Below are positions 2,596 through 4,951 of a stretch of 6,183 bases of DNA, in pieces. Numbering within the stretch: the first letter of the stretch is position 1; each line of letters opens with the position of its first letter. Made by a program: the position numbers and the translations under genes. Origin of the DNA: a virus. Lineage: Duplodnaviria > Heunggongvirae > Uroviricota > Caudoviricetes. The notes under the pieces are model-generated. The model ran no database searches, was not told the DNA's origin, and was given only the letters and a program-made list of their open reading frames with translations. The stretch lies in IMG/VR virus record IMGVR_UViG_2548876865_000003, positions 1-6,183 of that record. One strand, given 5' to 3'.

Positions 2596-2921
2596 AAACA
2601 TTTCGCTGGAAAGTGAAGCCGGATATGGAGGTGAACTCGCAGCCGTCGGTGCGTGAAGTGCGCTTTGGTGACGGGTATTTGCAGCGGACGGCGGCGGGGC
2701 TGAATGCAGACCTGAAAACCTACAGGGTGACGCTTTCCGTGACCCGGGAGGAGGCCCGGCATCTGGAGGCGTTCCTGGCAGAGCACGGGGGCTGGAAGGC
2801 ATTTCTGTGGACACCGCCTTATGCATACCGGCAGATAAAGGTGACCTGTGCCGGATGGTCCGCGCGGGTCGGGATGTTGCGCGTTGAGTTCAGCGCGGAG
2901 TTTAAGCAGGTGGTGAACTGA
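2592..2921 (+). CDS. M: Minor tail protein M (lambda gpM-like), 109 aa
   Basis: Supplied ORF 2592..2921. ATG overlaps the H stop in an ATGA arrangement (2592-2595), indicating translational coupling. GGAGG lies about 8 nt upstream. Length of 109 aa equals lambda gpM, and the gene sits between H and L. Confidence 0.9.
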   Translation: MKTFRWKVKPDMEVNSQPSVREVRFGDGYLQRTAAGLNADLKTYRVTLSVTREEARHLEAFLAEHGGWKAFLWTPPYAYRQIKVTCAGWSARVGMLRVEFSAEFKQVVN

Positions 2922-3619
2922 TGCAGGATATTCACGAAGAAAGCCTGAAGGAGTCGGTGAAATCAGAGCAGTCACCGCGGGTGGTGCTCTGGGAAATCGA
3001 CCTGACGGTGCAGGGCGGTGAGCGGTATTTTTTCTGTAATGAGCTCAATGAAAAAGGGGAGCCGGTGACCTGGCAGGGGCGGAAGTATGAGGCGTACCCG
3101 ATTGAGGGCAGCGGCTTTGAGATGAACGGGAAGGGCAGCAGTGCCCGCCCGTCGCTGACGGTGTCGAATCTGTTCGGCCTGGTCACCGGGATGGCGGAGG
3201 ATTTGCAGAGCCTGGTGGGTGCCACGGTGGTCCGCCGCCGGGTGTATGCCCGTTTTCTGGATGCGGTGAATTTTGTGGCAGGCAATCCGGAGGCGGACCC
3301 GGAGCAGGAGCTGACGGACCGCTGGGTGGTGGAGCAGATGTCAGCGCTCACAGCCATGACGGCTTCGTTTGTGCTGGCGACACCGACGGAGACGGACGGG
3401 GCGCTGTTTCCCGGTCGCATCATGCTGGCGAACACCTGTATGTGGGATTACCGGGGAGAGGAGTGCGGTTTCACCGGCGGGGCAGTGGCGGATGAGTTCG
3501 ACAACCCCACCACGGATATCCGGAAGGACAGATGCAGTAAATGCATGCGCGGGTGTGAGCTGCGCGGCATGGTGGCTAATTTCGGCGGTTTCCTTTCCAT
3601 CAGTAAACTTTCGCAGTAA
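2921..3619 (+). CDS. L: Tail tip protein L (lambda gpL-like), 232 aa, with a Cys-rich C-terminal region
   Basis: Supplied ORF 2921..3619. Start overlaps the M stop as TGATG. AGGTGG at 2908-2913 lies 7 nt upstream. Length of 232 aa equals lambda gpL. The C-terminal part contains a cysteine cluster (TCMWDYRGEECGF ... DRCSKCMRGC) consistent with the reported Fe-S-binding gpL family. Confidence 0.93.
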   Translation: MQDIHEESLKESVKSEQSPRVVLWEIDLTVQGGERYFFCNELNEKGEPVTWQGRKYEAYPIEGSGFEMNGKGSSARPSLTVSNLFGLVTGMAEDLQSLVGATVVRRRVYARFLDAVNFVAGNPEADPEQELTDRWVVEQMSALTAMTASFVLATPTETDGALFPGRIMLANTCMWDYRGEECGFTGGAVADEFDNPTTDIRKDRCSKCMRGCELRGMVANFGGFLSISKLSQ

Positions 3620-3629
3620 ATCCCGGTTT

Positions 3630-4373
3630 ATGACACAGACTGAATCAGCGATTCTGGCGCATGCCCGGCGGTGTGCGTCAGCGGAGTCGTGCGGCTTCGT
3701 GATAAGCACCCCGGAGGGCGAACGGTACCAGCCCTGTGTGAATGTCTCCGCAGAGCCGGAGGCGTATTTTCGTATTGCACCGGAAGACTGGCTGCAGGCA
3801 CAGATGCAGGGGGAGATTGTGGCGCTGGTCCACAGTCATCCCGGTGGTCTGCCCTGGCTGAGCGAGGCGGACCGGCGGCTGCAGATAAAGAGTGCCCTGC
3901 CCTGGTGGCTGGTCTGCCGGGGAGACATTCACCGGTTCCGCTGTGTGCCACACCTGACGGGACGGCGCTTTGAGCACGGGGTGACGGACTGTTACACGCT
4001 GTTCCGGGATGCTTATCATCTGGCGGGGATAACGCTGCCGGATTTTCACCGCGAGGATGACTGGTGGCGCAACGGCCAGAACCTGTACCTGGACAATATG
4101 GAGGAAACGGGCTTTTACCGGGTGTCCCTGTCCCGTGCACAGGCGGGCGATATCCTGCTGTGCTGTTTTGGCGCATCGGTGCCGAATCATGCCGCCATTT
4201 ACTGCGGCAACGGTGAACTGCTTCACCATATACCGGAACAACTGAGTAAACGGGAGAGGTATTCTGAAAAATGGCAACGACGAACGCATTCTGTCTGGCG
4301 TCACCGCCACTGGTCCGCATCTGCCTTCACGGGGATTTACAACGATTTGGCCGCCGCCTCAGCCTGTATGTGA
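3630..4373 (+). CDS. K: Tail tip assembly protein K (lambda gpK-like), 247 aa, with an N-terminal JAB/MPN (JAMM) domain and a C-terminal NlpC/P60-like domain
   Basis: First ATG (3630) after the L stop (3617-3619), in the frame of supplied ORF 3369..4373. The upstream part of that ORF overlaps L in another frame and is rejected. JAMM motif H-S-H-x7-S-x2-D is encoded at 3831-3872 (HSHPGGLPWLSEAD), with a candidate upstream Glu in AESCGFV. NlpC/P60-like Cys at 3990-3992 (VTDCYTLF) and His at 4188-4190 (PNHAAIY). No clear SD precedes 3630, so the start is somewhat uncertain. Confidence 0.85.
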   Translation: MTQTESAILAHARRCASAESCGFVISTPEGERYQPCVNVSAEPEAYFRIAPEDWLQAQMQGEIVALVHSHPGGLPWLSEADRRLQIKSALPWWLVCRGDIHRFRCVPHLTGRRFEHGVTDCYTLFRDAYHLAGITLPDFHREDDWWRNGQNLYLDNMEETGFYRVSLSRAQAGDILLCCFGASVPNHAAIYCGNGELLHHIPEQLSKRERYSEKWQRRTHSVWRHRHWSASAFTGIYNDLAAASACM

Positions 4374-4951
4374 ACACGGCGGCGGAAGCCATCCGCGCCC
4401 TGTCACTGCAGGTGCCTGGGTTTCGCCGTCAGATGAACGAAGGCTGGTACCAGATACGTATTGCCGGTGAGGATACCGCGCCGGAGGCGGTGTATGCCCG
4501 TCTTCACGAATCGCTGCATGAGGGCGCGGTTATCCACATTGTGCCGCGACTGGCCGGTGCCGGAAAGGGCGGACTGCAGATTGTGCTGGGGGCAGCAGCC
4601 ATTGTGGGCTCTTTCTTCACTGCCGGGGCATCGATGGCGTTATGGGGTTCAGCCCTGGCTGCCGGTGGTTTTTCTGCCACCACGATGCTGTTCTCGCTGG
4701 GTGCCAGCATGATACTGGGTGGCGTGGCCCAGATGCTGGCCCCGAAGGCAAAGACGCCGGAGTACAAAAGCACGGATAACGGCAGACAGAACACGTATTT
4801 TTCCTCACTGGACAACATGATTGCCCAGGGCAACCCGATGCCGGTGCCTTACGGTGAAATGCTGGTTGGTTCACGACGGATATCCCAGGACATCAGCACC
4901 CGTGATGAAGGCGGAGACGGGAAGGTGGTGGTTATCGGGCGGCAGGGGTAA
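4271..4951 (+). CDS. I: Tail tip assembly protein I (lambda gpI-like), 226 aa, with an N-terminal ubiquitin-like (beta-grasp) region and a hydrophobic Gly/Ala-rich C-terminal half
   Basis: Supplied ORF 4271..4951. ATG lies inside the 3' end of K in a different frame, giving a 103-nt overlap, the same size I recall for lambda K/I. The I frame is closed by TGA at 4265-4267 immediately upstream. GGGAGAGG at 4251-4258 is a possible SD at long spacing. Product contains RLAGAGKGG followed by predicted hydrophobic helices. Confidence 0.85.
   Translation: MATTNAFCLASPPLVRICLHGDLQRFGRRLSLYVNTAAEAIRALSLQVPGFRRQMNEGWYQIRIAGEDTAPEAVYARLHESLHEGAVIHIVPRLAGAGKGGLQIVLGAAAIVGSFFTAGASMALWGSALAAGGFSATTMLFSLGASMILGGVAQMLAPKAKTPEYKSTDNGRQNTYFSSLDNMIAQGNPMPVPYGEMLVGSRRISQDISTRDEGGDGKVVVIGRQG

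Follow-up and report, generated by a model that had tools for sequence, protein, structure and literature searches.

Gene K of a lambda-like prophage very probably starts at ATG 3630 and encodes a complete JAB domain, half of which is missing from the lambda reference annotation

The DNA analysed here, a stretch of 6,183 nucleotides referred to throughout as the window, carries the tail tip module of a lambda-like prophage, with genes in the order H-M-L-K-I-J. Genes H (22-2595), M (2592-2921) and L (2921-3619) precede K (3630-4373, forward strand), whose end is overlapped by gene I (4271-4951, forward strand); H, M, L, K and I were each identified by Pfam. Closest to the window among the records are Stx-converting phages and prophages of E. 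coli, at 92-96% identity. The order of the genes is the same in lambda and in the Stx phages, where K also lies between L and the I/J pair.

Gene K is opened by an ATG at 3630-3632, ten nucleotides past the stop codon of L. The open reading frame is 744 nucleotides long and holds 247 codons, followed by a TGA at 4371-4373. Its translation begins MTQTESAILAHARRCASAESCGFV..., and MTQTESAILAHAR... is a stretch of this 247-residue form. The product is assigned as a tail tip assembly protein in which a JAB/JAMM metalloprotease domain comes first and an NlpC/P60 (C40) peptidase domain follows. This assignment draws on the reading frame itself, on Pfam, on PHROG (phrog_30, minor tail protein, E = 4e-158), and on an identity of 86.9% over 245 amino acids to the K product of those lambda records that contain a particular G, to which we return below.

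The TAA that ends L (3617-3619) and the spacer that separates it from K together occupy 3617-3629 on the forward strand, as read from the sequence and from its alignment with lambda. The spacer is ten nucleotides long in the window and in Stx phages, against five in lambda-type phages. The difference is a five-nucleotide indel (an insertion of GGTTT or GTTTT; GGTTT here), seen when 3620-3629 of the window are set against 1129-1133 of the corresponding locus of NC_001416 (L001). No Shine-Dalgarno-like sequence can be recognised before ATG 3630 in this spacer, in either its ten-nucleotide or its five-nucleotide version. This suggests that the translation of K is coupled to that of L.

That K starts at 3630 had been proposed from the letters of the DNA alone, and the proposal is upheld by wider comparison. 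All 190 related loci have ATG at this position, and no gap breaks the frame between residue 1 and the remainder of the protein. As the relatives in that search are all at least 91% identical, it supplies depth, not breadth. Breadth comes from a search of representative sequences, where distant relatives (34-50% identity, 220-270 amino acids) align their own residues ~5-15 to residues ~4-10 of the query. Nineteen homologues from Escherichia, Salmonella, Citrobacter and Edwardsiella (67-95% identity) all begin within four residues of Met1, and I8, L9, A12, E19, S20, C21, G22 and V24 are invariant in them; clusters of homologues are mostly of 245-247 amino acids. Further, the indel that lies directly 5' of the ATG has a length not divisible by three, and conservation of the frame therefore begins at the ATG.

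Three IMG/VR contigs (L032, L088 and L124) carry K genes whose tblastn matches are split over two frames, at residues 98, 190 and 210. These splits have the look of true frameshifts, or of errors in assembly, in prophages undergoing decay.

The N-terminal part of K is a Prok-JAB domain (Pfam PF14464), covering residues 3-105 (3636-3944, forward strand). The 247-residue form scores 56.4 bits (E = 3.4e-15, well outside what chance would give) against a curated cut-off of 25 bits, and spans positions 3-113 of the 114 in the profile, which places it within the family. The 199-residue form, which is how K is annotated in lambda, scores 27.2 bits over positions 63-113 only, and loses Glu19. Comparing the two forms in this way was the check proposed by the earlier sequence-only reading, and it came out as that reading expected: the complete JAB domain is not contained in the short form.

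The JAMM motif, defined as EXnHS/THX7SXXD (PMC300881), is matched exactly in K, as E19 ... H68-S69-H70-PGGLPWL-S78-EA-D81, so that K qualifies as a carrier of the motif. The general-base glutamate is Glu19, encoded at 3684-3686 (forward strand) within AESCG and recognised from its invariance and from alignments. The predicted zinc-binding part, H68-S-H70-x7-S78-x2-D81, is HSHPGGLPWLSEAD at 3831-3872 (forward strand), as read from the sequence and its conservation. Among the 19 homologues, E19, S20, C21, G22, H68, S69, H70, S78 and D81 never vary. The exact match and this invariance confirm the earlier suggestion that the glutamate of AESCG and HSHPGGLPWLSEAD together make a full JAMM site.

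Comparison with proteins of solved structure points the same way. In HMMER alignments, Glu19 falls on the glutamate of NEACG in 2KKS and on that of EVCGF in Pyrococcus furiosus JAMM1, and the HSH...S..D block aligns as well. Searched as a single sequence against solved structures, K matched only one JAB structure, weakly (2KKS), and NlpC/P60 structures below threshold; P. furiosus JAMM1 was reached by profile search. The NCBIfam model for desampylases of the JAMM type (NF041370) matches the long form only, with a score of 30.9 against a family cut-off of 130; K is therefore not a member of that equivalog. An AF2 model of moderate confidence (pLDDT 76, its input a shallow alignment of 19 sequences with identities of 67% or more) lies mostly at 70-93 in the JAB region, and places a helix (3-15) and two strands (21-27 and 30-36) inside the domain. 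The best Foldseek match of the model is P. furiosus JAMM1 (5LD9/5LDA; 106 columns, rmsd 2.8, target-normalised TM 0.64). As modelled, K would belong among proteins of the MPN fold.

The helix and both strands fall within the first 48 codons (3630-3773, forward strand), the ones omitted by a lambda-style annotation of 199 residues and assigned to the domain by Pfam, PHROG and the AF2 model. This 48-residue piece, taken alone, matches positions 3-52 of the Prok-JAB profile (E = 9e-5), and matches PHROG families at E = 1e-29 to 1e-20. Across the 190 loci, its variable sites number 18, 12 and 33 at the first, second and third codon positions, compared with 69, 44 and 134 in the remainder of the gene. 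Variation across the upstream 48 codons is thus of the coding type, as it is elsewhere in K. Glu19 is, of course, one of these 48 residues, which bears out the claim that a 199-residue start leaves the protein without its catalytic glutamate. These 48 residues belong integrally to the JAB fold and supply that glutamate; a functional JAMM site needs Glu19, and hence needs the 247-residue protein.

The C-terminal part of K is an NlpC/P60 domain (Pfam PF00877), residues 111-224 (3960-4301, forward strand). It scores 53 bits against a cut-off of 23 and spans all 105 positions of the profile (1-105), and so belongs to the family. Candidate catalytic residues are Cys121 (TGT, 3990-3992), His187 and His199, all of them invariant in the 19 homologues; judged from its sequence, this half of K would be a cysteine peptidase acting through these three residues.

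Gene I, the likely substrate gene of K, was identified by the Pfam profile Lambda_tail_I. In its product, a ubiquitin-like domain occupies residues 16-97 at the N-terminal end and finishes close to Gly100-Gly101 (encoded at 4568-4573); a structural plug domain follows. The di-glycine is G100-G101 in both the lambda and the window gpI. The gene overlaps the end of K by 103 nucleotides in another frame, so that 4271-4373 codes twice, for the C-terminal 34 residues of K and for the N-terminal 34 residues of I. The K part of this overlap holds the invariant W223, R224, H225, W228 and SAFTGI, and the I part holds the first strand of the ubiquitin-like domain. The start of I presents a problem that mirrors that of K. 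The long form (226 amino acids) covers positions 4-83 of the 83 in the Lambda_tail_I profile, against 26-83 only for a short form that would start at a GTG at 4370, at the stop codon of K. The short form is annotated in NZ_CP027323 (RefSeq), PV340536 and KT232076, and was the choice of the gene caller in L010, one of the related loci. Many records thus truncate the very ubiquitin-like domain whose removal is predicted to be the task of K.

The site at which lambda K is annotated to start corresponds, by alignment, to the ATT of Ile49 (3774-3776, forward strand), within FRIAPEDW. Here, the sequence-only reading was right that the lambda annotation gives 199 residues beginning at a methionine equivalent to this isoleucine: K is annotated in NC_001416 at 14276-14875, with 199 amino acids beginning MSPEDW. 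One might therefore suppose that K starts internally, at codon 49 or at GTG 3699, GTG 3738 or ATG 3804, making a protein that is essentially NlpC/P60 only, its JAB-like half being untranslated or a relic. Such a supposition can appeal to the 199-residue K of the lambda reference and of several other records, to the large clusters of 199-residue proteins present in the protein collection, and to a GGAGG at 3758-3762, 11 nucleotides upstream of codon 49. The GGAGG, however, simply falls within the codons for Glu-Pro-Glu-Ala, and gene callers pick the codon-49 start because it stands there. In L010, which belongs to a 199-residue cluster, the gene caller took the codon-49 ATG despite an intact in-frame ATG upstream, so that the short call was the caller's choice. 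Codon 49 itself is ATT in the window; across the 190 loci it is ATG in 110, ATC in 43 and ATT in 37. With isoleucine encoded in 80 of 190 loci (42%), the "start" of lambda is not a conserved feature. Codons 1-48, moreover, show the coding-type variation and the invariant catalytic residues already described. An internal start is, in our judgement, highly improbable.

An improbable variant of this idea would have phages such as lambda make two products, the full-length protein and a short NlpC/P60-only form from the Met49 ATG that the GGAGG precedes. Nested in-frame starts are common in phage late genes, and Met49 with GGAGG upstream occurs in 110 of the 190 loci. The window, however, has ATT at codon 49 and could not make the short form there, and the feature is not conserved. 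Further, the position occupied by Met or Ile is a conserved hydrophobic position of the JAB family (2KKS and P. furiosus JAMM1 have F-x-M-D-P), which explains Met49 with no need for initiation. The remaining alternative, to which we give almost no credence, places the start further upstream, at TTG 3369, ATG 3492 or GTG 3555, to give a longer protein overlapping L. The frame is indeed open back to 3357, and a mechanical search for open reading frames returns 3369-4373 (334 amino acids). But what is read there is the 3' end of L, in a frame other than its own, Pfam coverage of the JAB domain begins at residue 3, and all homologues, including distant ones, begin a few residues from Met1. The five-nucleotide indel relative to lambda just 5' of the ATG breaks any common frame, and so rules out an upstream extension shared with lambda.

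The reading in which K starts at ATG 3630 must then account for the 199 residues of lambda K. NC_001416, like J02459, the lambda reference sequence of 1982, lacks a G after position 14266 (position 1267/1268 of L001 being 14266/14267 of lambda); it reads GAGGC-TATTTCC where other sequences read GAGGCGTATTTCC. As a result, the homologous ATG (14133) and the ~45 codons that follow it lie in a frame different from that of the annotated K. The earlier statement that the frame is lambda-like back to the ATG is thus right for the DNA, and fails for the frame of NC_001416, where one G is missing. With the N-terminal ~45 codons separated by the omission of one base, the 199-residue call in lambda was forced. 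Likewise, the earlier account of lambda K was right that the short form lacks the glutamate, but the cause there is a one-base omission, and not simply a badly chosen start.

Five sequences of lambda or derived from lambda, deposited independently, have the G, and the sequences that contain it include LC730321, PV340536, KT232076, lambda imm21, DE3 and HK630. LC730321 is a lambda of 48,503 base pairs, one more than the classic 48,502. A 23-mer containing the G matches at least 120 viral contigs; the corresponding 23-mer lacking it has no match among the 2.9 million viral contigs of IMG/VR. In 4359 matching complete E. coli records, no exact match to a query lacking the G was found, the best being 99.7% over 312 nucleotides. 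Besides J02459 and its RefSeq copy NC_001416, the G is absent from OR474059 (marked UNVERIFIED) and OR974322. These two may not be independent of the reference, to which OR974322 is 100% identical over a query of 311 nucleotides; tblastn matches split at residue 45 in NC_001416 and OR974322 only. With the G, lambda K has 247 amino acids, and is so annotated in PV340536. The 199-residue start is also annotated in records that contain the G (DE3, HK630 and lambda imm21). It is therefore likely that the lambda reference omits a G, that NP_040598 thereby loses its catalytic glutamate and half of its JAB domain, that the short start spread by annotation transfer to records containing the G, and that true gpK has 247 residues.

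As an alternative source of the discrepancy, lambda K might have used a programmed -1 frameshift. We reject this: the site has no slippery heptamer, and the extra G is simply there in every independently deposited sequence of lambda or of a lambda derivative.

No record of a missing G or of a sequencing error in lambda K was found in the literature searched. Preprints on lambda resequencing and on CRISPRi, both based on NC_001416, do not mention K, and a re-analysis of lambda ribosome profiling makes no statement about it.

What K does has been the subject of published work. Iyer, Burroughs and Aravind described K as a JAB plus NlpC/P60 protein in 2006 (PMC1779556), and the same paper noted that the N-terminal ubiquitin-like domain of gpI ends in a conserved glycine and predicted its processing by K (PMC1779556). 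A conference summary (PMC12908700) reports that lambda gpK processes gpI. Lambda K is needed for tail assembly and is absent from the virion (PMC10721106; PMC12617516), gpK not having been found in virions (PMC10721106). In cryo-EM structures, gpI is resolved only from about residue 101 (PMC11101478) or only from residue 135 (PMC10721106).

A sequence of events may be proposed. Translation very probably begins at ATG 3630, and would be coupled to that of L. By homology with lambda gpK, the JAB domain, through Glu19, His68, His70, Ser78 and Asp81, would then remove the ubiquitin-like domain from the neighbouring gpI, presumably once gpI is docked at the tail tip as it grows. K would thus serve as an assembly factor not retained in the virion. 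For catalytic activity, substrate and mode of initiation, we infer or draw on the work of others. Overall, we hold it very likely that K of this lambda-like prophage starts at ATG 3630, that its product is a 247-residue protein with two peptidase domains and a complete JAB domain including the first 48 residues, and that the 199-residue call in lambda comes from the missing G; by its homology to lambda gpK, K would also cleave gpI.

Much of this is not new. The start at 3630 is already standard, as a 744-nucleotide gene in VT1-Sakai and, since then, in relatives, in Stx phages and in RefSeq prophages of E. coli. The combination of JAB and NlpC/P60 and its function are likewise already published or publicly reported. 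For the window itself, the standard annotation is merely confirmed. The sole addition is the explanation of lambda's short K by one base absent from the reference record, for which no documentation was found in the literature searched.

This addition has practical consequences. Anyone who relies on the lambda reference record for gpK obtains a protein without the active-site glutamate of its JAB domain. Structure prediction, cloning, the design of knock-downs and proteomics databases are all affected, and the short gpK could hide the deubiquitinase-like activity by which tail tip assembly is now reported to be ordered. The trap would be removed by correcting the reference entry, or by an awareness of the opposite truncation in gene I.

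The closest known system is, of course, lambda gpK (TAPK), which has the same position in L-K-I-J, the same Prok-JAB and NLPC_P60 domains at the 86.9% identity over 245 residues given above, and the same 103-nucleotide overlap with gene I. It differs in having Met49 where the window has Ile49, and an L-K spacer of five nucleotides where the window has ten. The reference protein NP_040598 (199 amino acids) lacks the first 48 residues only because the G is missing in J02459. Counterparts of gpK in F-type pyocins (PA0639, PyoF8), likened here by description, are homologous assembly factors absent from the mature particle, and the gpI-like plug protein of their neighbour gene is seen from its C-terminal part only; the F-type pyocin is, however, a tailocin and not a phage.

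Further afield, the eukaryotic deubiquitinases Rpn11, CSN5 and AMSH share with K the MPN fold and the JAMM zinc site, and occupy Foldseek ranks 4-50. They are, however, much larger, carry insertions, work in large complexes, and have 11-23% identity to K. The best structural and profile match is to the archaeal JAMM1 desampylases (PfJAMM1, 5LD9/5LDA; the Haloferax family, NF041370), which have a minimal JAB fold of stand-alone size (~105-130 residues) and, as in K, E...HxH-x7-S-x2-D. They detach a ubiquitin-like protein by cutting at the glycines of its C-terminus. Identity to K is ~25%, and K joins its JAB domain to NlpC/P60. The substrates would differ as well: archaeal JAMM1 acts on an isopeptide conjugate, whereas the predicted substrate of K is a linear fusion, the ubiquitin-like and plug domains of gpI.
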